A DNA stretch of 64,000 bases from Fistulifera solaris (Eukaryota), in assembly GCA_030295235.1 (NCBI GenBank), contig AP026136.1, positions 1,302,001 to 1,366,000 of the forward strand, given 5' to 3'. Made by a program: the position numbers and the translations under genes. The notes below the pieces were generated by a model. The model saw only the letters and a list, made by a program, of their open reading frames with translations, was not told the DNA's origin and ran no database searches. Below are positions 10,407-64,000 of the stretch, in pieces. Position 1 is the stretch's first letter. The number at the start of each line of letters is the position of its first letter.

Positions 10407-12449
10407 TCATGCCGAATCCATTAGATAATGGAGCTGTTCCAAGAAACGCTGCACATCATCGGATCCAACTCGAATCACGTGACTGTCATGACCAAAGGAA
10501 AAGGTTCCTGTCATAGATTGTGCGGCAAGCGCGAAATGCTGTCCCCATCTATTTCGTACCCAATCACCAGCTTTTTCCGTGTACTCGTATCCTGCCACGG
10601 TGTAGAAATCATCGTCTTTCGCCAGCAATATCAAAGGACGACCGACCCACTTGCCGTTCACACGGTGCAGTTGGAAAAGATACTGGGCTAAACGCGTCAA
10701 GACCGCCGGTTTGGCCAAGACAGATTCATCACCGACGTAAGCGTACCGGAAGTGAGCTAAAGACGTGATCGCATTCCGTTCCATCAAGCTAGCCGCAGCA
10801 GCGAAAATTTTTTTCTGTAGTTTCATTGCTAAATGTAATCCATATCCTAATGGATTTCCTGTCAGGCTTCCTCCGTTCACTAGATTGTCTTCATTTTGCA
10901 GATCCATTACACGAGGAGGAGCATTGGATTGCAAGGCATCGAGTGCGCGATTAAACATGTCGTCCTTGTCACTGCCAAAATCGAGTAACGCAGCTGCCGC
11001 ATGAGCGGCATCGGCCGCCGAAAGCACCGACTGATACCCCGTGATACGAAGAAAGCTGGTGTATTCCAAGTTCTCCAATCCATATTCCTCGGCATACTCT
11101 TGAAGTTTGGACGCCAGCATGCGCCGCAAGGCGGGTTTCATAAAGGCGTACGGTTGCTGACATTCCGTCAAGGGGAACCCCATCTTGGCGAGTAACTCCT
11201 TGAGTTTGTTCATACCCGCTGGTCGATACAGTTGAAGTTGTGTACTGACCGTGTCGGAATACATCATCGCATCCAACAATGAAGAAAATCGCAACAAGAA
11301 GAACTTATAGTCGGGCTGAGAAAAGACGCGTCCCGTACCCCGTAACGATAGTTTCGTTCGTTCACCGGTTGCTCCGTTGGAAGAAAGTTGCTCGGCATAG
11401 ACGGTGTTGCGAGCTCGCAATGCGATATCATCACTGTCATCCGCATCTAGTTTTTGACACGCTTGCCGCAATTGCAAAGCCAAAGTCGAATATCCCGTCA
11501 AATCCAATCGTCCGTGCCAGTAAGCATCCGTGACTCCGACACAAGCCAACCAAAGCAGTGTCGTGTGGTCCCCGAACCGCAATTGTGTGGCCAACTGGTA
11601 CGCCACAAAGGCCGCCGGCGCCCCGTAATAACTTCCGGCGGAATAATATCGTTCGATGCGCTGTCGACGGTCCTGTTGCCACTGTCGCGGTGTCAAGAGT
11701 GCCGGTGTCGATTCGGCCGTCGGTACTGTCGTTGGTTCGGTTTCTTCCATTGCTTCCGTTGTGTCGCGTTCTTTTTCGTACGATTCTGTTTCGTCTTCCT
11801 CGTCTTCCCTGCGAGGCTTTTTCGCTCTACCCACCGACGAATCGTCATCGTGATCGTCGTCGTCACTGTCTTCTTGATTCTCTTCTTGTTGCTGTTGTAG
11901 CGGATCTCCCGCATTCTCATCATTTTCATCTTGATACTCAAACTCTCCTTCGTCACGATCGGACGATGCAACGGATGAATCTTCTTCTTCGTCGTCTTCT
12001 TCCGATGATTCATCATCGTCTTCCGACTCGGAAGATGATTCATTTCCACTGAGATTTTCTCCATCACTGGGTATTTCTGTTTCATCAATGTCCCAAAAGA
12101 CGACAATATCCCGATTCGCGTGAATATTGGCCAAATGAACGGGCCGTGCCGGATCCAGTACATAAATTTGTCGTCCTTGATACCATTTGGTTAAATTCTG
12201 CGGTGCACCCATATGCAACAACACCACACAAGTCGCTACCGCGGAAGCCTGTTTCAAATCTTCTTCCAAGTTAGTACAACATAGCAAATGATGCGCGATA
12301 TGATCGGCGCGCAACAAGAACGACAGAATGCGGGCCGCACACAAGGCATCGACCGTCGGACGACAAAGAATCCAAACGGAACCATCTTGTCCACAATCAC
12401 GCAAGATTTGTTGATAGCCGCGATGCCAGTATTCTATTTCTAATTTCAT
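10407..12449 (-). CDS. CDC45: DNA replication initiation factor CDC45
   Basis: 'VDALCAARIL', 'RPVHLANI', acidic insertion, 'LLWLACVGVTD', 'FFLLRFSSLLDAM', 'ELLAKMGFPL..CQQ' and 'SAAD'. The first ATG is at 12449. Confidence 0.93.
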   Translation of the reverse strand: MKLEIEYWHRGYQQILRDCGQDGSVWILCRPTVDALCAARILSFLLRADHIAHHLLCCTNLEEDLKQASAVATCVVLLHMGAPQNLTKWYQGRQIYVLDPARPVHLANIHANRDIVVFWDIDETEIPSDGENLSGNESSSESEDDDESSEEDDEEEDSSVASSDRDEGEFEYQDENDENAGDPLQQQQEENQEDSDDDDHDDDSSVGRAKKPRREDEEDETESYEKERDTTEAMEETEPTTVPTAESTPALLTPRQWQQDRRQRIERYYSAGSYYGAPAAFVAYQLATQLRFGDHTTLLWLACVGVTDAYWHGRLDLTGYSTLALQLRQACQKLDADDSDDIALRARNTVYAEQLSSNGATGERTKLSLRGTGRVFSQPDYKFFLLRFSSLLDAMMYSDTVSTQLQLYRPAGMNKLKELLAKMGFPLTECQQPYAFMKPALRRMLASKLQEYAEEYGLENLEYTSFLRITGYQSVLSAADAAHAAAALLDFGSDKDDMFNRALDALQSNAPPRVMDLQNEDNLVNGGSLTGNPLGYGLHLAMKLQKKIFAAAASLMERNAITSLAHFRYAYVGDESVLAKPAVLTRLAQYLFQLHRVNGKWVGRPLILLAKDDDFYTVAGYEYTEKAGDWVRNRWGQHFALAAQSMTGTFSFGHDSHVIRVGSDDVQRFLEQLHYLMDSA

Positions 12450-13065
12450 TCTTTCGTGATGAGATGACAATGCGATCGGCGTGTTTGCTTGCTTTTGCGC
12501 CGAAAGGACGAGAAATTAATAATACGGAGAAGAAAGAATGAGCGCGAAGATCGTCATTTTGAAAAAATAGCTCGTTGTGGCGCGCCGTCGGGGAAGCAAC
12601 CGGCAGTTACTACCAACACGTGATCCGTGTCTTTCCGCAACCGCTACAATTCATTCATTCTCTTGTCTGCATCGAAGTCGAAGTTCATAATAATATAGAC
12701 AATCCAGACGATGAACGATGATTCCTTGCGGAGATGAAGTATTTGGAAAGTACCAGGTAATCGGCTCCGTCAGTGTCGTACAAAAGCGTCGCTCGCAAGT
12801 ATTAGGCCTTGAAAGAATGTGTAAAAATCGACGTGTTATATAAAATCCGAATCGTTGAGCGGGTGCGAGGTATAATCGCCGGCGACTTACCCAGAATTTG
12901 AAGTTCCGTTTTTCGTTAGCAGGAGCGAGAGAATGCTGCACTTGATACTGGTACGACTAACCTGTAAATCGCGAGCACCAATAATAACATCAAAATACTA
13001 GACGACGGAGTAAATAGTTTCTGGTTCGTTTCTATTCCTTTCGTAGACTATGGCATATTACAATG

Positions 13066-14988
13066 TTACATTCCATTCACAATGGCATTTTGAATATCTT
13101 CAAACGTGACCATGACTTCCATAGGTGCCAAAACAGGCATACGCGTCGATCCGGGGCCACCACCATTGGGACTCATCAGTTTGAAAGGACTAAGACTACC
13201 CTTAGAAGCAGCATCGTCCCAAGTCACCCGTTTGCGCAATTCTGATTGAACACCCGTCAAGAGCAAATGCGCGATGCGTCCATTGCGTTCCGCCATCCAA
13301 TCCGGATCCAAATTCTTGCGCAATAATTCGGCTATAGCTTCGAAACGGACACCTTCTGCGGGGACCAAGCCCTTCTCTTGCAGCATGGCCAAGAACATAA
13401 AGGCAATGTCTTCCGCGGTGGGTTCGAAGAATTCAAGTCGCGTCAAGAAACGACCTTTGAAACCGATATCCGATACAAGGATACGTTGCAAGTCGACAGG
13501 AGCCCCGATCAAAATAACCACAGGGGCATTGTCTTGCGCCAGAGCCTTGGCCATTTCACGGAGTGCTGCGGCACCATGATCACGACCCCTCGGTCGTGCC
13601 GTTGATGGCAAAAGCGTGTAGGGTTCATTCCACACCAAGACACCGCCGGCCGCGCGCTCCAGCAAACGACGAACACAAAAGACGGTTTTGGCTTCACTAC
13701 GAGGATCCACGAGATCCGCACGACTGCATTCTACAACGTTACGTGTTTGCACGGCACCCATGTCGTACAAGAGAGAGGCGGCGAGTTTCGCGGCCGTGCT
13801 ACGACCAGTTCCTGGACTTCCCGTCAAACAGAAATGACGCGGGATGTGCCGCGGCTGCAACTCCAGAGTCCGACGGTACCCACGCATTTGGTTTTTGAAG
13901 GTTTCGAGTCCCACAATTTGTGCAAGAGCCTTTTCGAGAGGATCATCGGCAGGGCATAGCGCGTCTTGGACCATTTGTGCTTCAATTTCTTCTTCACTGA
14001 GAGTAGCTTGCGGTGCGCTTTCTTCTTGATGTGCCTTGCGGACTTGCTCCAGTAGTGTATCCAAGTCACGTACTTGCTGAGGATTGATACCGGCACTGTA
14101 CAAGGCATGCGGTTGTCGTTCGGCAATGTCCAAAAGTAATCCAAGCACAATATCCCTATCTTCATGCATACCGTCATGTTGTTCCATACTTCTTTGCAGT
14201 TCCTTCTCCAATCGTTCACACGCGGCTTGTGCACTCGCCAGAACTTCATCATCGGTTGGTGGAAGTTTCTGTCCTTGTAGCAAAGCAATCACATTAGGAC
14301 TAGCTCCATCGGCAATCGCGAGATCCAGCGGCGTGTTATTGTCATTGTTCTTTTGCAAAGCACCTTCCGGGTACGCGTTGTACAAGGCTTCGACGACCTC
14401 GAGTGGTGCATTGTAATGTGCCGCGTAATGCAAGGGCAAGTTCCCGTGATTGTTCTTTTGGCAGCTCCTTCTGGGTATACTTTCAACAACAATTTCTCTA
14501 CATCTAGCGGTCCTTTCTTCCATGCCGTAAAGTGCAATGCCAAGTTTCCATAGTTATTGGTCATACTGGCTGCTTCGGGATAAGCTTCTAGAAGTGCTTC
14601 CGTGACTTCCAGAGGAGCACGAAACGAAGCCGCCGAATGAAGAGGCAAGTTGCCGCGATCATTTTTGATTTGTGCTTCGTGTCTGTGAGAGTGAGAAAAA
14701 AAACAGGACATGTGTGAGATTCAAGTATGTTTTTCATGGAAACATTGCGGAAACAGGCTGATTCATCGTCGACGAATGCGAGCAAATGAATCGTAATCGA
14801 CAGCAATCTCTCGCTCAAATCTAGCGCAATCCTCCTTAGGGAAGGATGGCTACAGACACTAATATCCGCAAGGCAACGCACCTTGTAGCCGGATCTTTCG
14901 CTCTAGCAATCGCCGCTTTCCAACCTTTTGCTAGATCATGCAAATCAACATATTCACCGCCACTTCCTGCGACAGCTCGACTTGTCAT
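13066..14988 (-). CDS. Ankyrin-repeat + CbbX/SpoVK-type AAA+ protein with degenerate Walker A/B (paralog A)
   Basis: Exon 1 14988-14882 (MTSRAVAGSGGEYVDLHDLAKGWKAAIARAKDPAT), GT-AG intron 14881-14683, 4 ankyrin-like repeats with one apparent 1-nt deletion near 14460, coiled coil, then an AAA domain: IVGLETFK, GSPGTGRS, SRADLV, GGVLVWNEPY, IGFKGRF, ERNGR. Confidence 0.85.
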
Positions 14989-15635
14989 GTTGTTGTGCTG
15001 ATTTGTGTGTTGTTGCTATCCACGGAAAAAGATAAATCAGTTGTATGTATTGAATAGCACACAGGTCTTGCTTGCTACTGCTGCGTTGAGGTTCTAATAC
15101 AACAACAATAAAAAAGAAAAAAGACGCTTGCTGTACGGTCGCTGCTGTCTGTTGTTGTTATTATATTATTATTGCTGTTGTTGTTGTTGTTGTTAAGATG
15201 TTGATATAGACGCAAGAGACGCGCGACCGAGGAAGATTTCCCACCCTAATTTTTTCAGTCTCAACGGATCCTTTTTCTCGTCCATAGACCGTTGAGTACC
15301 GTTTCAGTCACATGATTAGAAATTTCGGCTACTACAAAAATGACAGTCGTGTAAACACAAAGAGAGGTTCAACGGGCGCGCTCTTTTCGGCGCGGTCCTC
15401 TGTTTTGCGGCACAGGCGGGTCGGCGGATTCGCAACAACAATAACAAAGAAGCAACACCAATAACAGCCTTTCTCTTGCTCTGCTGCTACTCGGAACGAT
15501 ACTATCCTTGTCGTTCGTGTTATCTAGAGAGGAAAGGGTGTATCTTATCTTCATACAAAGACAATCCCTTGTTGCGCGCTCCAGATCTAATTCCATCATA
15601 GATTCATTCATTCATTTGGAATACAAATTGAAAAA

Positions 15636-17462
15636 ATGTCAACGGATACAATAATGCACGATTTGTGTAAGGGCTTTGGTGCCTTATTGATGCGTAGTAA
15701 GGTAAGTTACAAGGAAAGGACTTCCTAACGCATGCATATTGCGTAAAGAAGAATTGGAAAGACGAAAATAATGTCGAGCTCTTCCCCCTGCATTCAAACT
15801 CACTCGTCACTCACACAATCACTCTTTCATTTTTTTTCGCAGGAACCTTCCTTCCCGGAAGAAGCTTCGCGTGTCAATGATCGCGGAAATTTGCCCTTGC
15901 ATGCGGCTTGTAGTTATCAAGCTTCGCCGGATATTCTGGAAGCTTTAATTCGAGCCTATCCGGCCGGATGCAGTCATCCGAACACTACGGGAAATTTACC
16001 CATTCATCAAGCATGCATGTGGCAAATCCCTTCCGAATCGTTAGAACTATTGTTGCACAAATATCCTGCCGGAGCCGCCGTACGCAATCAGTACGGAAGT
16101 CTTCCTCTCCATATGGCTGCTTCCAATCAAGCATCGCCCGAGAACATTCGTCTTCTCATTGATGCTTATCCCGATGCCTTGCATCTGCAGAATGATGACG
16201 GCATGACGCCCTTGGATTTGGCACTTGCGGATCAAGAGGCAGTAAGTGATGCGGTCATTGCACTCTTGGAAGGACGTCCGGCGCCTCCGGAACTCACAAG
16301 ACGTCAAAAAGCGGAAAAGTATCAAGAGCGGGCTGCCGCCATGGAACGTAAATTGGCTTCCTTGCAAAACACCGGATCGCGTCGTGACAATGATGTCAAG
16401 GTTGTACTGGCTGCCGTGCGACGCTTGGCAGATCGGATTCCGCATGCTCTCTATGTCGCCGGTGTCGATCCCAACCAATTGGAAGTTGCCCTTTCGGAAG
16501 CATCGCCACAGAGTGATCCGGACATCATTCTACTCGAAACCATCCGCAAACGTGGCAGTGGTGTTCGTGATCGCGTTGAAGATCTTTTGGGCACCATTGT
16601 CGGACTCGAGCACATTAAATCACAAGTCCGTGGTTTGCGTCGTTCCGCGGAATTGAGTGACTTGCGTACGTCTCTCATGCCTTCCAAGAATTTGGTGCAC
16701 CTGTTGCCACCCGCGTTAGCACAAGAGACAGCGCGACCGGCTGCTAGTGCAATGGTCTTTTGTGGGAATCCGGGTACTGGCAAAACAGCGGTTGCGCGCT
16801 TACTGGCCAAAGTATATCACGAGCTGGGTGTCTTGCGCAAACCCAAATTTCTAGAAGTGGAACGAATGGATTTAGTAGGAAAGGATGTCGAACAAACCAA
16901 GTTGAAGACAAAAGAAGTGCTAGAAGAAGCGGCCGGAGGTGTGCTTTTAATTGATGAAGCATACACGTTGGGGATGGCGAGTCGTCGGAACAAGGTGGAT
17001 GCGGGGGCATCGGCCATGGCAGAACTTGTGTACGCGATGCAAGACAATTCCAACAATCCCAGCTTCCCTCTAATAATACTGGCGGGTTTTACTTTGGAAA
17101 TGCAAGCCTTCTTGGCATTCCAACCTGAATTGCGTAAATGCTTTCCAGCCGTGTACGAATTCCCAGACTACTCATGCGCGGAGTTGGGACAGATCTTTGG
17201 TGATTTGGCTGCATCAAAAGGCTTTGATGTAGAAGAATCGTTGACATCGTCGTTCATTGCAGGCCTTTTGGAACGCGAAACGACTCCAGCATGGCGGTCC
17301 GAACGAAATGGCCGTGTTTGTGAAATGTTATTAACCGGTGTGCGTACGCAAGTCCGCAAACGTATGCGTATCGCACAAATGGAAGGAACGGATGACCAAT
17401 TTGATCCGCACTTGATTTTGAAAGAAGATGTGGAGAATGTGATGAAGAGTGATTTCAAGTAG
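15636..17462 (+). CDS. Ankyrin-repeat + CbbX/SpoVK-type AAA+ ATPase (paralog B)
   Basis: Exon 1 15636-15701 (MSTDTIMHDLCKGFGALLMRSK), intron 15702-15842 (gtaagt...tttcgcag), 4 ankyrin-like repeats, coiled coil, then an AAA domain: IVGLEHIK, GNPGTGKT, ERMDLVG, GGVLLIDEAY, PELRKCF..EFPDY, ERNGR. Confidence 0.9.
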
Positions 17463-17976: not shown

Positions 17977-19415
17977 ATGACAGCGAACGACACTCCGCAG
18001 CAGGTGATGCAAGTAATTGCTGATTCTGACGTATGGAATCACCATCTCGCTCCCTTTTGACATTTCAAGATGTCGCTCGCTGCGAGCAAGTTTTTCGTTG
18101 CAATGATAAAGAGAAAACGTGGGAACTATTGTGTGTGCGCGACTTTTCATTAAATTCGAAAGAAGCACCAGATGATTCCTTTCAGACGATTCTTCGAGAC
18201 ATTGAGAAATGGAAAGAAATCTATCGACGCTGGCGGGCTTGGCATGTTCATACGCATCATGTAACGACAACACAACAAGGTTATGATGCGATACAATTGT
18301 ATCAAGACATACAATCTTTTTATATTAGGCAGCACCAACGTAACACACTACCAAAGTCTTATCAAGAGTCTCTGGCTCCTGCGTTAGACAAAAACACCCT
18401 GCTATCGTGGACGGAGCACGCTCTCGTGCCATCGGATCTCGTTGCTTGGTATGCCGTATGTGGAGGACAACATGTCCTTTCGAGGAACTACAGTGACGAG
18501 GACTTTTGGGCAGCATTTTTGGGATGTTACACATGCTACGATGCTTATTACGCTATGCGACTCGTTGATGCTAAAGTTATGGGACCCATGGGTGTGCGCA
18601 GCCAATCCAATTATCCCAACAATCATGTCTTGGTAGCTCTTTGCGTCGGAAATCCCAGGCTATGTTTGTCGGTGAGAAAGGATCCCGGGGACGATCCACA
18701 TGGTCGCCTAGTGCGATTGCATCCCTTTGGTCATAACGACAGGAACTCAATCGTTGTTGGAGATCAAGGTATTTTGCATTATTTTCAAGAATACGTGAAG
18801 CAACTGAGAACGGGAACGTTTCCGATTGCGTCCCTATCACCCGACACACGTCGCGTACCAGGTTTCGTGCTCTTTCCCGACGCTGGAGATGCCGTGTCCG
18901 TTTGTATCACTCACGGAATCGAAGTCCGTGCGAGCGCACGGTGGTTTCCTACATTTAGCAACAACAATATTCAGCCATGGCAAGAAGACGAGGAAGGCTT
19001 GAACTTTGGCTACAGTTTTCGTATACGAATGGTGGATTCCTCTGTCGGAAGCATATGCCAACTTGTATCGCGGCATTTCGAATTCGTCAATGGTCACGGT
19101 GTAGTTCGTCGCATTGATGGAGATGCAGTGGTGGGGAAACAACCTCTCTTCTTCTTTAACGAATCTCAGGGCATACAATCGTTTGGATATCATGATCTAG
19201 GGCCTGCCGGAGACGAAGAAACTTATTCGAATATGGCATTTACCTATCAGAGTCAAACGGGCCCCACAGCTGGTACGACACGTCAAGATACGCACGGAGC
19301 TTATATAAAAGGATTCTTTCGTTTTGTTCCAGGAAGCATCGAAGAACCCAAAGGCCCATTGTTTGACGTTCCTTTCAACCCTTTTCCTTTGACTGTTCCA
19401 TTTCCCTTTTACTGA
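17977..19415 (+). CDS. F-box / SMI1-KNR4-like / ApaG-domain protein (SKIP16/FBXO3-like)
   Basis: F-box-like start (ATG 17977, frameshift at a T-run near 18056), then 'LFPD..SVCITHGIEVRAS', 'YSFRIRM', 'CQLVSRHF', 'IDGDAVVGKQP', 'FTYQS' and 'GFFRFVPGS...FDVPF.PFPL'. Confidence 0.8.
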
Positions 19416-63397: not shown

Positions 63398-63480
63398 TGA
63401 CTATTGCACACTTCCGACTATTGCTGGACTTCCAACATTTGCAAGACTTCAGACTATTGCACACTTCCGACTATTGCAAG
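63398..63480. repeat. Short ~17-bp tandem repeat (gactattgcacacttcc)
   Basis: About 5 imperfect copies directly upstream of the 7-mer array. Confidence 0.8.
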
Positions 63481-63485
63481 AGGGT

Positions 63486-64000
63486 GTGAGAAGTGAGATG
63501 TGAGATGTGAGATATGAGAAGTGAGAAGTGAGATGTGAGAAGTGAGAAGTGAGATGTGAGAAGTGAGATGTGAGAAGTGAGATGTGAGAAGTGAGAAGTG
63601 AGAAGTGAGAAGTGAGATGTGAGAAGTGTTAAGTGAGAAGTGAGAAGTGAGAAGTGAGAAGTGAGATGTGAGAAGTGAGATGTGAGAAGTGAGATGTGAG
63701 AAGTGAGATGTGAGAAGTGAGATGTGAGATGTGAGAAGTGAGAAGTGAGATGTGAGAAGTGAGATGTGAGAAGTGAGAAGTGAGATGTGAGAAGTGAGAA
63801 GTGAGAAGTGAGATGTGAGATGTGAGATGTGAGAAGTGAAAAGTGAGATATGAGAAGTGAGAAGTGAGAAGTAAGATGTGAGATGTGAGAAGTGAGAAGT
63901 GAGAAGTGAGATGTGAGATGTGAGAAGTGAGAAGTGAGAAGTGAGATGTGAGAAGTGAGAAGTGAGAAGTGAGAAGTGAGAAGTGAGATGTGAGAAGTGA
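63486..64000. repeat. 7-bp tandem array GTGAGA(A/T) running off the window end
   Basis: About 73 units, with two interspersed variants GTGAGAA and GTGAGAT. Confidence 0.98.

Follow-up and report, generated by a model that had tools for sequence, protein, structure and literature searches.

The divergent gene pair analyzed here from the diatom Fistulifera solaris raises the question of whether two paralogous AAA+ proteins with opposite defects in their ATPase sites act as one enzyme. The window, i.e., the whole stretch of DNA analyzed, comprises 64,000 nucleotides of contig AP026136.1 (assembly GCA_030295235.1). Its first-pass annotation proposed that the two proteins, hereafter A and B, form an obligate heteromeric ring, and held such a system to be undescribed. 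All sequence features of A and B on which this proposal was built were found again where it had placed them (Table 1), and the N-terminal exons with LHDLAKGW and MHDLCKGF are real.

Gene A (minus strand) and gene B (plus strand) are arranged divergently, with start codons 647 bp apart, and the region in between is a candidate bidirectional promoter. In both proteins, an N-terminal helix and four ankyrin repeats are followed by a long helix and by an AAA+ domain belonging to the SpoVK/CbbX/EccA clade. Pfam assigns Ank repeats and PF00004 to each of them, a PHALY motif is common to both, and an identity of 32% over 462 aa (BLASTP, E 2e-61) marks them as clear paralogues. Gene B does not differ in a single residue from the annotated F. 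solaris protein P0249 (GAX19083.1, 561 aa). The exon junction of gene A reproduces ...DPATRHEAQ... of P0121/P0241, and its C-terminal 462 aa show no differences to P0241 (GAX19084.1, 574 aa; F. solaris). In the window, the coding length of gene A is 1721 nt instead of the 1722 nt expected: the A4 run at 14459-14456 disrupts the frame after ankyrin repeat 2 and before repeat 3. The sequence AAKKNNHGN is uninterrupted at this site in P0241 and five other cluster members (the homeologue and four further ones). Frame breaks in homopolymers are typical of read errors.

Table 1. Features of the gene A/gene B locus, with positions counted from the first nucleotide of the window
Feature	Position	Strand	Remark
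Gene A exon 2, including stop codon	13066..14682	-	Ankyrin repeats, long helix, degenerate AAA+ domain; from ORF and Pfam
A sensor-2, ERNGR	13276..13290	-	Motif present
A finger region, IGFKGRF	13447..13467	-	Arg (CGT, 13452-13450) at CbbX-194; Lys at 192
A Walker B, LVWNEPY	13618..13638	-	Asp to Asn
A Walker A, GSPGTGRS	13798..13821	-	Lys to Arg, Thr to Ser
A4 homopolymer	14456..14459	-	One A fewer than the annotated protein implies (A5); window reads GCTGCCAAAAGAAC
Gene A intron	14881-14683	-	GT..AG
Gene A exon 1, ATG at 14988-14986	14882..14988	-	N-terminal helix with LHDLAKGW; sequence read
Intergenic region	14989..15635	.	647 bp, flanked by both start codons; candidate bidirectional promoter
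Gene B exon 1	15636..15701	+	MSTDTIMHDLCKGFGALLMRSK; N-terminus agrees with P0249 (GAX19083.1, 561 aa)
Gene B intron	15702-15842	+	Splice model upheld by the annotated 561-aa protein
Gene B exon 2, including stop codon	15843..17462	+	Ankyrin repeats, long helix, PHALY, canonical AAA+ domain
B Walker A, GNPGTGKT	16764..16787	+	Canonical
B pore-loop-1 region, VGKDVEQT	16875..16898	+	Asp at CbbX Tyr114 position
B Walker B, LLIDEAY	16944..16964	+	Canonical
B finger region, PELRKCF	17124..17144	+	Arg (CGT, 17133-17135) at CbbX-192; Cys (TGC, 17139-17141) at 194
B EFPDY	17157-17171	+	Motif present
B sensor-2, ERNGR	17301..17315	+	Motif present

The defects themselves are present in the window as annotated: B combines canonical Walker A and B motifs with a Cys at the arginine-finger position, and A combines degenerate Walker A and B motifs (K>R, D>N) with an Arg at that position. 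For comparison, 121 orthologues of A, 121 orthologues of B, and an outgroup of 474 related AAA modules were evaluated. Alignment of PELRKCF of B to PGFRSRI of CbbX places the Cys at CbbX residue 194, and GFKGRF of A has Arg at 194 and Lys at 192. As the Cys of B falls where 446 of the 474 outgroup modules have Arg, the motif register read by the first-pass annotation is right.

Searches of the PDB with phmmer returned CbbX (5.9e-29) and EccA1 (2.7e-25) as top matches of B, and EccA1 (8.1e-19) and CbbX (1.4e-14) for A. Congruently, Foldseek ranked CbbX best for B (E 4.1e-15; next family 8.9e-08). The best three NCBIfam models were SpoVK, CbbX, and EccA, with every family cut-off missed; B and A reached 126.7 and 63.3 bits, respectively, against the 459.25 bits of the CbbX equivalog TIGR02880. 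By their closest relatives in sequence and fold, A and B are members of the higher-order SpoVK/CbbX/EccA clade as defined in the available text of PMC11513918. The sensor-1 GY of 421/474 outgroup modules is replaced by GF in all 121 B orthologues, occurs in 61/121 A orthologues, and reads GA in window A. The Asn upstream of the finger (430/474 outgroup modules) is represented by Gln (86) or Asn (31) in B and by Asp (77), Glu (37), or Asn (6) in A. Our column count places this Asn six residues before the conserved Arg, compared with four in the sentence available from PMC11513918. Sensor-2 retains its Arg in 117/121 orthologues of B and in 74/121 of A. Neither window protein has the pore-loop tyrosine known from CbbX (Tyr114), its place being taken by Asp in B and Arg in A, and B orthologues (n = 121) carry Asp (100), Thr (13), Glu (4), or Asn (4) and in no case an aromatic residue. 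Lacking a pore-loop aromatic, A and B are unlikely to thread a substrate in the manner of CbbX.

A and B represent two clean diatom-wide orthogroups, separated by one change of the A/B label on a tree of 242 tips, and the named matches include pennate as well as centric diatoms. The Walker Lys, Asp, and Glu of B are each found in 121/121 orthologues. Position 194 of B (n = 121) is occupied by Arg (91), Lys (16), Cys (7), Ser (3), Asn (2), Gln (1), or His (1). In A, the Walker A Lys is retained in 114/121 orthologues and the Walker B Asp in 80/121, with Asn in 29, and some Walker A/B defect is found in 44/121. Of the 121 A orthologues, only 10 possess the finger Arg, and 111 lack it. Most diatoms combine an A with intact Walker motifs and no finger with a B that has both, a polarity opposite to the one in Fistulifera. 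In both proteins, conservation is highest in the ankyrin repeats: in repeats 3-4, 81% (A) and 64% (B) of the columns are at least 95% conserved.

Gene order is little conserved among diatoms. The divergent linkage of A and B, which the first-pass annotation had suggested searching for, is conserved: of 61 metagenome loci, 17 extend 1.9 kb or more upstream of B and are informative, and each of these 17 has an A-type gene head-to-head with B on the opposite strand, with a B identity to the window of 52-68% across the head-to-head loci. The remaining 44 loci include at most 1.2 kb of upstream sequence and are uninformative. In addition, the locus tags of A and B are neighbors in Mayamaea and in each of the two F. 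solaris homeologues. Among approximately 21 distinct A/B pairs, three of which were assumed from equal length of the carrying sequences only and three from organism or sample name, B Cys occurs only where the Walker B Asp of A is lost (window, L021, and L028/29). The remaining 18 pairs have a B with Arg in 17 cases and Lys in one (Mayamaea), and four pairs retain the Arg of B next to a Walker-dead A. This link between B Cys and dead A is thin: it goes back to two independent events, and the independent-pairs test has no power (p = 1). Comparison of the Walker-dead A of L021 and L028 yielded a pN of 0.09, a pS of 0.65, and an omega of ~0.06; the comparators were 0.07 for a pair of intact A and 0.03 and 0.06 for B. 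Walker-dead A genes are under purifying selection (dN/dS ~0.06), and the neutral evolution of A named by the first-pass annotation as an argument against its model does not apply.

We see about an even chance that A and B constitute an ancient diatom module, acting together as a hetero-oligomer with B as the motor and A as a pseudo-ATPase partner. Both genes would be transcribed divergently from their short common intergenic region, B would use ATP within the A/B hetero-oligomer, and the ankyrin repeats of both proteins would presumably hold the client. Early in the history of the diatoms, A may have lost its trans-acting arginine finger and later, in the Fistulifera lineage, its own catalytic Walker residues as well, turning it into a pseudo-ATPase with a remaining role in binding or regulation. 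The change from Arg to Cys in B would represent relaxed constraint, since a B finger, if it points into the nucleotide site of A, would no longer be needed after the death of that site. The Arg of Fistulifera A may complete the B site or may be a neutral change from His. The prevailing combination in A of a nucleotide site (Lys in 114/121, Asp in 80/121) with no finger fits best beside a finger donor. Judged from the motifs, however, a strictly alternating ring would set the invariant Walker site of B against the finger-less side of A in most diatoms, which the hetero-oligomer reading leaves unexplained.

Direct contact was addressed by a two-chain complex prediction of A and B, which scored 0.37 compared with 0.00 for the best of three controls, with no interface being reported. 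The runs agreed in at least 61% of contacts at a partner pLDDT of at least 65. The mark applied to such predictions is reached by 51/78 solved complexes and 2/108 mismatches; at scores up to 0.60, it was reached by only 5 of the 78 solved complexes and by all four mismatches that passed, and 0.37 lies in a range that the tool itself calls wrong more often than right. Contacts between AAA+ neighbors resemble those in rings of known structure, and a B-B pair would probably obtain a similar score; the prediction therefore cannot tell a heteromer apart from a homomer, and it lends weak support to A-B contact.

The hetero-oligomer has to be weighed against two independent proteins, with B being a homo-oligomeric ATPase that uses its first Arg, A being an ATP-independent ankyrin adaptor or regulator outside the B ring, and the linkage reflecting common regulatory DNA. 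We regard this as rather unlikely. B possesses every cis motif and could, by its sequence, act alone through the first Arg of its finger region (CbbX-192 position), found in 121/121 B orthologues; the occurrence of this residue in only 87/474 outgroup modules suggests a family-specific role. On the tree, the second Arg of B changed at least nine times. The catalytic residues of A erode repeatedly (at least six changes in Walker B and at least ten in Walker A), and its AAA domain is less conserved than that of B (28% versus 43% of columns at least 95% conserved). Nevertheless, independence offers no explanation for the predominance of A orthologues with Walker A and B but no finger, nor for the occurrence of B Cys solely beside a dead A. 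The head-to-head arrangement in all 17 informative loci, at the B identities given above, is a strong linkage, and the weakly supported A-B contact argues in the same direction.

The model of the first-pass annotation, an obligate alternating A3B3 ring in Fistulifera in which B binds ATP, A provides the finger in trans, and homo-oligomers are inactive, appears improbable to us, even though several observations speak for it. The Cys of B replaces a residue that is Arg in nearly all outgroup modules (446/474), A has an Arg at exactly the matching position together with dead Walker motifs, and a single transition per codon separates both residues from the neighboring states, which are His for the Arg of A and Arg for the Cys of B. 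In the Fistulifera-like 90% cluster, IGFKGRF and ERNGR are found in 8/8 A members despite up to 43 residue differences, and Cys in 7/7 B members covering the site. Cys or Ser at the B finger position further extends over a clade of eight representatives; the Cys is thus neither an error nor a private mutation, a possibility raised by the first-pass annotation. Torsin-LAP1 offers an existing example of such a design in the available text of PMC4358337, and the weak complex prediction (0.37 versus 0.00) is consistent with it. The point at which the annotation itself had seen its model endangered, Arg at the finger position of B orthologues, holds for 91/121 of them, with Cys/Ser being kept in the clade of eight.

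Against the A3B3 ring, the Arg of A is limited to one lineage within the Cys/Ser clade: only two of the 44 Walker-defective A sequences have it (window A and its homeologue), and the nearest A relatives share the dead Walker motifs, have Tyr or His at the finger position, and have lost the sensor-2 Arg, too. Cys/Ser arose twice in B, and the second, separate Cys clade is partnered by an A with His. The other eight A sequences with a finger Arg have intact Walker motifs. In addition, the invariant Arg two residues upstream in B (121/121) may itself act as a finger. As species without the Arg of A keep the Walker motifs of B intact, with both genes under selection, the machine works without it. 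Reciprocal defects are consequently not a conserved design, and reciprocal complementation could at most be a peculiarity of Fistulifera.

Such a peculiarity could have a history of its own, which we consider quite improbable: with the active site split between subunits into a Walker half in cis and a finger half in trans, only the A-Walker/B-finger interface would ancestrally have been complete, the site would have died on both sides in one raphid-pennate clade, and A would have regained an Arg (His to Arg) in Fistulifera, flipping the polarity to a working B-Walker/A-finger interface. Finally, the reading of window gene A as a pseudogene, which would render the pairing meaningless, can practically be dismissed: the missing base in the A-run breaks the frame and neither the Lys of Walker A nor the Asp of Walker B has survived, but the annotated protein of the same locus is uninterrupted with the remaining 462 aa identical, the homeologue and four further cluster members are likewise uninterrupted at the A-run, Walker-dead A evolves at an omega of ~0.06, and the AF2 model of A shows an intact AAA+ fold (mean pLDDT 80.5).

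If A and B co-assemble, they would represent an AAA+ machine of diatoms in general that has so far not been described and that binds its client through an ankyrin arm. In the main texts of openly accessible journals, we found no paper on ankyrin, CbbX, and diatoms, nor on Fistulifera solaris, AAA, and ankyrin. The gene pair would then offer a natural series, leading from an intact A without finger to a Walker-dead A, the loss of the useless finger of its partner, and possibly a finger regained on the other side, and yielding concrete and cheap ATPase predictions for orthologue pairs of different diatoms. Such a series could show how hetero-oligomeric rings lock in, a ratchet-type question that also concerns red-algal CbbX (PMC5437159, as far as its text is available). 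A true polarity flip would be a natural experiment in which an active site moved between the interfaces of a hetero-ring.

Among known systems, Pex1/Pex6 forms a heterohexameric AAA+ ring of alternating paralogues with unequal ATPase sites (available text of PMC4490564); as a type II double-ring of another clade, it may be likened to A/B by analogy only. A land-plant cluster of Ank plus PF00004 proteins (Atlas; 433 aa, 61 members, Streptophyta) resembles the diatom proteins with a feature score of 0.97, kinship being judged by this Atlas look-alike score alone, and with structural TM values of 0.49/0.63 over the AAA part; however, its members are shorter. We take the corresponding gene to be AT3G24530, which the papers found mention in tables only, and to our knowledge these proteins have no paired paralogue. 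Within the SpoVK/CbbX/EccA clade, the "specialised chaperones" typically recruit through an N-terminal domain that varies among them, and an ankyrin fusion is not listed in the portion of PMC11513918 available. The sensor-2 Arg of the clade is present in window A and B, whereas B has GF for the sensor-1 GY, A is variable there, a pore-loop aromatic is missing, and the conserved Asn before the finger is Gln/Asn in B and Asp/Glu in A.

Red-algal CbbX, from the same AAA+ clade and the best sequence and fold match of the diatom proteins, is a 1:1 heterohexamer of the non-equivalent nuclear and plastid subunits CmN and CmP (PMC5437159, in the parts available). Knocking out Walker B is tolerated in CmP, which has been described as a mainly structural subunit (PMC5437159 Table 1; PMC5385338). 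By analogy, the paralogues A and B may likewise have unequal roles in one ring. In contrast to CbbX, for which the same Table 1 gives Tyr114 (pore loop 1) as required for activase function, the diatom proteins lack an equivalent of this residue, reach 63 and 127 bits against a cut-off of 459, carry ankyrin repeats and a long helix, and are encoded by adjacent nuclear genes with no Rubisco link seen. In the second precedent, Torsin, which has no finger of its own, is activated in an alternating ring by LAP1/LULL1, proteins of AAA+-like fold without nucleotide-binding motifs and with an Arg at the finger position (available text of PMC4358337). That Arg is strictly conserved in LAP1 according to the same text, whereas A has it in 10/121 orthologues; A and B are close paralogues of the same architecture from another AAA+ clade, and their N-termini, as far as sequence indicates, suggest no membrane or lumenal context. 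Similar to Torsin-LAP1, window B has Cys at the finger position, albeit with an Arg two residues upstream, and window A is without functional Walker motifs (K>R, D>N). In concept, the arrangement regarded by the first-pass annotation as without description therefore has precedents in Torsin-LAP1 and in the 1:1 heterohexamer of CbbX, as the available texts of PMC4358337 and PMC5437159 present them.

The best explanation for the ankyrin-AAA+ paralogues A (minus strand, degenerate Walker motifs) and B (plus strand, canonical Walker motifs) is a conserved module of two unequal subunits. Pfam detected ankyrin repeats and PF00004 in both proteins, which share 32% identity across 462 aa (E 2e-61). 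The closest solved sequences to A and B are CbbX and EccA1, and NCBIfam ranked the models SpoVK, CbbX, and EccA first, although well under threshold, with B at 156, 127, and 125 bits vs cut-offs of 423, 459, and 467, respectively. These nearest families together with the sub-cut-off scores place the pair within the SpoVK/CbbX/EccA higher-order AAA+ clade, as described in a part of PMC11513918, and outside its named families. A Foldseek search with the AAA part of B as modeled by AF2 (mean pLDDT 78.3, first 61 residues below 50) returned CbbX as best hit (E 4.1e-15), followed by Katanin, Rix7, and Cdc48 at ~1e-07. The full-length AF2 model of A (mean pLDDT 80.5) shows, after an N-terminal helix at residues 16-31, four ankyrin repeats (36-171, pLDDT >90) and a single helix of 46 residues (180-225); its AAA+ fold is complete, with five strands and a lid. 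A profile search of the PDB matched mainly designed ankyrin proteins, giving no alignment to classical AAA+ fingers. The ankyrin plus AAA composition was also found in two diatom clusters and one land-plant cluster (Atlas look-alike search). Besides the diatom pair, the nearest representatives (P0257-P0405) are mostly giant proteins (1000-4400 aa) in which 3-8 CbbX-like AAA modules stand in tandem, in some cases together with ankyrin repeats.

Gene models of the pair and neighboring features of the window
Feature	Position	Strand	Remarks
Divergent gene pair	13066-17462		start codons 647 bp apart
Gene B exon 1	15636-15701	+	splice confirmed by the P0249 N-terminus
Gene B intron (GT..AG)	15702-15842	+	
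Gene B exon 2	15843-17462	+	identical in every letter to P0249
Gene A exon 1	14988-14882	-	
Gene A intron (GT..AG)	14881-14683	-	
Gene A exon 2	14682-13066	-	C-terminal 462 residues = P0241
A4 run in gene A	14459-14456	-	1 base short; frame lost between ankyrin repeats 2 and 3
F-L-T-R of A	13438-13449	-	Arg 4 residues past position 194
687-aa ORF	10407-12470	-	Pfam CDC45 full-length match, E 4.2e-118; long acidic insert
460-aa ORF	18033-19415	+	weak ApaG/DUF525 match, E 6.6e-07, residues 318-374; remainder unassigned
Smaller tandem array	63399-63478		17-bp unit
Tandem array up to window end	63485-64000		period 14 (TGTGAGAAGTGAGA), ~37 copies, 90% matches

All motifs and codons that the first-pass annotation had read in A and B were recovered in place. 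The annotated proteins of Fistulifera solaris are P0249 for B (GAX19083.1, FisN_3Lh017, 561 aa) and P0241 for A (GAX19084.1, FisN_3Lh018, 574 aa), and the homeologues FisN_3Hh017/018 form a second pair, departing from these by 3 and 6 residues. Both introns occupy an equivalent site, immediately ahead of the first ankyrin repeat. Gene A has a coding length of 1721 nt in the window vs 1722 expected, as GAX19084.1 and relatives need AAAAA where the window DNA has AAAA. Within the 90% cluster of A, AAKKNNHGN runs uninterrupted in six of eight members (the annotated protein of the locus, its homeologue, and four more), the other two being one without a regex match and one fragment. Judged from these sequences, the missing A is probably an error in the homopolymer or a site corrected in the annotation. 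A scan of the 647-bp intergenic region with bacterial promoter and terminator models, which have no bearing on a eukaryote, performed no better than shuffles. At the window end, the period-14 array accounts for the GC-skew jump (0.31) in the final 2 kb.

Concerning the arginine finger, HMMER aligned PELRKCF of B with PGFRSRI of CbbX and GFKGRF of A with the same CbbX stretch, by which the Cys of B corresponds to CbbX residue 194 as counted from the alignment coordinates. By the same count, residue 114 is the pore-loop Tyr and residue 138 the Walker B Glu, in agreement with the numbers used in Table 1 of PMC5437159; thus, the CbbX numbering is sound. An outgroup, serving solely for column counts, was built from 474 AAA modules of 149 representatives of the whole-library search (top 150, mostly long tandem-AAA proteins), which were aligned to the profile. 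Arg occupies position 194 in 446 of these modules (94%); consequently, the motif register of the first-pass annotation was correct, and B in the window lacks the conserved finger of the clade. Position 192 is variable (K 100, R 87, A 64, E 60, and others; n=474), and the invariant first Arg of B was rejected as "the" finger, this position being Arg in only 87 modules vs 446 for the second. R194 of CbbX was reportedly named as arginine finger by Mueller-Cajar in 2011; no paper naming the CbbX finger residue was found among the open-access papers searched. A conserved Asn (430/474 outgroup modules) lies six residues ahead of the conserved Arg by column count, and a passage of PMC11513918, which had suggested the first Arg of B as the finger, places it four residues upstream of the finger; the register given here follows the column counts.

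Both A and B represent large diatom orthogroups (identities of 46-98% for A and 56-99% for B among the best 120 matches each), with the A/B label changing once on a 242-tip tree. Named matches of A/B include Mayamaea, Seminavis, Nitzschia, Pseudo-nitzschia, Cylindrotheca, Amphiprora, Epithemia, Phaeodactylum, Ditylum, Chaetoceros, Thalassiosira-type, Coscinodiscus-type, and Attheya. Catalytic columns were counted in 121 sequences per gene, i.e., the best 120 matches plus the window's own.

Residue states at catalytic columns in 121 sequences per gene (CbbX numbering)
Column	B	A
Walker A Lys	121/121	K 114, R 4, M 3
Walker B Asp	121/121	D 80, N 29, other 12
Walker B Glu	121/121	117/121
Position 192	R 121	K 116, R 5
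Position 194	R 91, K 16, C 7, S 3, N 2, Q 1, H 1	top eight: H 54, N 36, R 10, S 7, Y 5, F 3, K 3, Q 2
Sensor-2 Arg	117/121	74/121
Pore-loop Tyr position	D 100, T 13, E 4, N 4	K 103, R 18

By these residues, A usually has a nucleotide site without a finger, and B has both. Family-wide, the column counts thus reverse the earlier picture, in which B provided only the site and A only the finger: Arg194 is present in 10/121 A and 91/121 B sequences. Four residues past position 194, 109/121 A sequences carry the Arg of F-L-T-R, where B has Thr/Val; this residue may be a relocated trans-acting or a structural one. At the pore-loop position, the outgroup modules have Y in 292 (62%) and F in 42 of 474. 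The lack of pore-loop aromatics in A and B argues against CbbX-like threading, and an identity of A/B as CbbX/Rubisco activase was rejected on the column states and the sub-cut-off NCBIfam scores. The AAA domain is less conserved in A than in B, and ankyrin repeats 3-4 form the most conserved region of either protein; this very high ankyrin conservation points to a putative fixed client.

The divergent arrangement is itself conserved. A pattern scan of metagenome contigs yielded 61 loci with a B relative, and in 17/17 loci with at least 1.9 kb upstream an A-type gene precedes B on the opposite strand, their ORF ends being 0.14 to 1.8 kb apart; near-duplicate removal leaves about 13 informative loci, and the other 44/61, with at most 1.2 kb upstream of B, are uninformative on linkage. 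The same linkage is seen in Mayamaea (locus tags ...250400/...250500) and in both homeologues of F. solaris. In several metagenome loci the frame of A or B appears as two same-frame ORFs around a single stop codon (including L021 3058/3062, L028 1434/1438, L034 1087/1091, L054 4386/4390, and L032 6246/6250), which may be short in-frame introns or real stops.

Paired states were compared in a set of about 21 distinct A/B pairs, made up of the window, Mayamaea, 13 metagenome loci, three pairs joined by organism/sample name, and three joined by assumption, solely because their contigs are equally long. B carries Cys in three of them (window, L021, and L028/29), each with an A whose Walker B Asp is gone. 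Four pairs combine a defective A with a B still having Arg (L030, Cylindrotheca, Amphiprora, and one with GKR in Walker A of A). Where the Walker site of A is fully intact (14 pairs), B always has Arg, except in Mayamaea (Lys). These states, based on two independent events, fit an order in which the site of A dies first and the finger of B is lost afterwards, as would be expected of a ring where the B finger serves the nucleotide site of A. An independent-pairs test of A-Walker vs B-finger states had no power (two starred pairs, p = 1); its input scored L042 as H and L032 as T from poorly aligned upstream fragments, the paired comparison giving Arg for both.

The Cys of B had been considered a possible private mutation or error, and it is neither. 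Eight B sequences with Cys/Ser, including that of the window, are set apart from the others by a single branch (SH-aLRT 98; 45-row tree), showing the Cys to be old and fixed. A second Cys clade (P0043, P0048, L021, and L028) is separate, implying two changes to Cys/Ser. The nearest relatives of A have Walker motifs as dead as in the window (GRT or GRS, NE) and have also lost the sensor-2 Arg, but carry Tyr/His at 194. Among these near relatives, Arg194 is confined to the Fistulifera-like cluster (8/8 members, even where the sequence departs from that of the window at 12 or 43 residues); the remaining eight A sequences with Arg194 are distant and Walker-intact. Reciprocal complementation might hold in Fistulifera alone, and the family does not work by it, because sister lineages with both "defects" have an A without this Arg.

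Walker-dead A genes are under constraint comparable to intact ones, contrary to the neutral evolution considered earlier. Between L021 and L028 (339 codons), pS was 0.65 and pN 0.09, corresponding to an omega of ~0.06; the intact-A pair L041 and L042 gave 0.07, and B 0.03 and 0.06. With dS near saturation these omega values are rough, pN nonetheless being far below pS. On this omega, the read-through in cluster members, and the folded A model, the reading of gene A as a pseudogene is rejected. Complex prediction with the helix-plus-AAA parts (B 163-561 and A 172-574) scored A-B at 0.37 (runs 0.36, 0.37, and 0.37) vs 0.00 for the best of three controls, a verdict of weak support, with at least 61% contact agreement between runs and partner pLDDT of at least 65. 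Of the solved complexes 51/78 reached the mark, and of the mismatches 2/108; at scores up to 0.60 it was reached by just 5 of the 78, plus all four mismatches that passed. According to the tool itself, such a pass is wrong in more cases than it is right, except where the pairing was likely beforehand. AAA+ neighbors also look like solved rings, and a protein closely related to the real partner can likewise reach a pass; the prediction thus does not separate A-B from B-B.

In a module with unequal subunits, B would act as the motor subunit. A would have lost its finger early and, in the lineage of the window, catalysis altogether, with selection on A retained. In a strictly alternating ring, the invariant Walker site of B would face a finger-less A, which this reading leaves unexplained. 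No publications on the A/B proteins were found in the open-access library searched. The first-pass annotation knew of no description of such a system; the concept of reciprocal complementation nevertheless has precedents in Torsin-LAP1, as presented in part of PMC4358337, and in the CbbX N/P heterohexamer, as covered in parts of PMC5437159 and PMC5385338.
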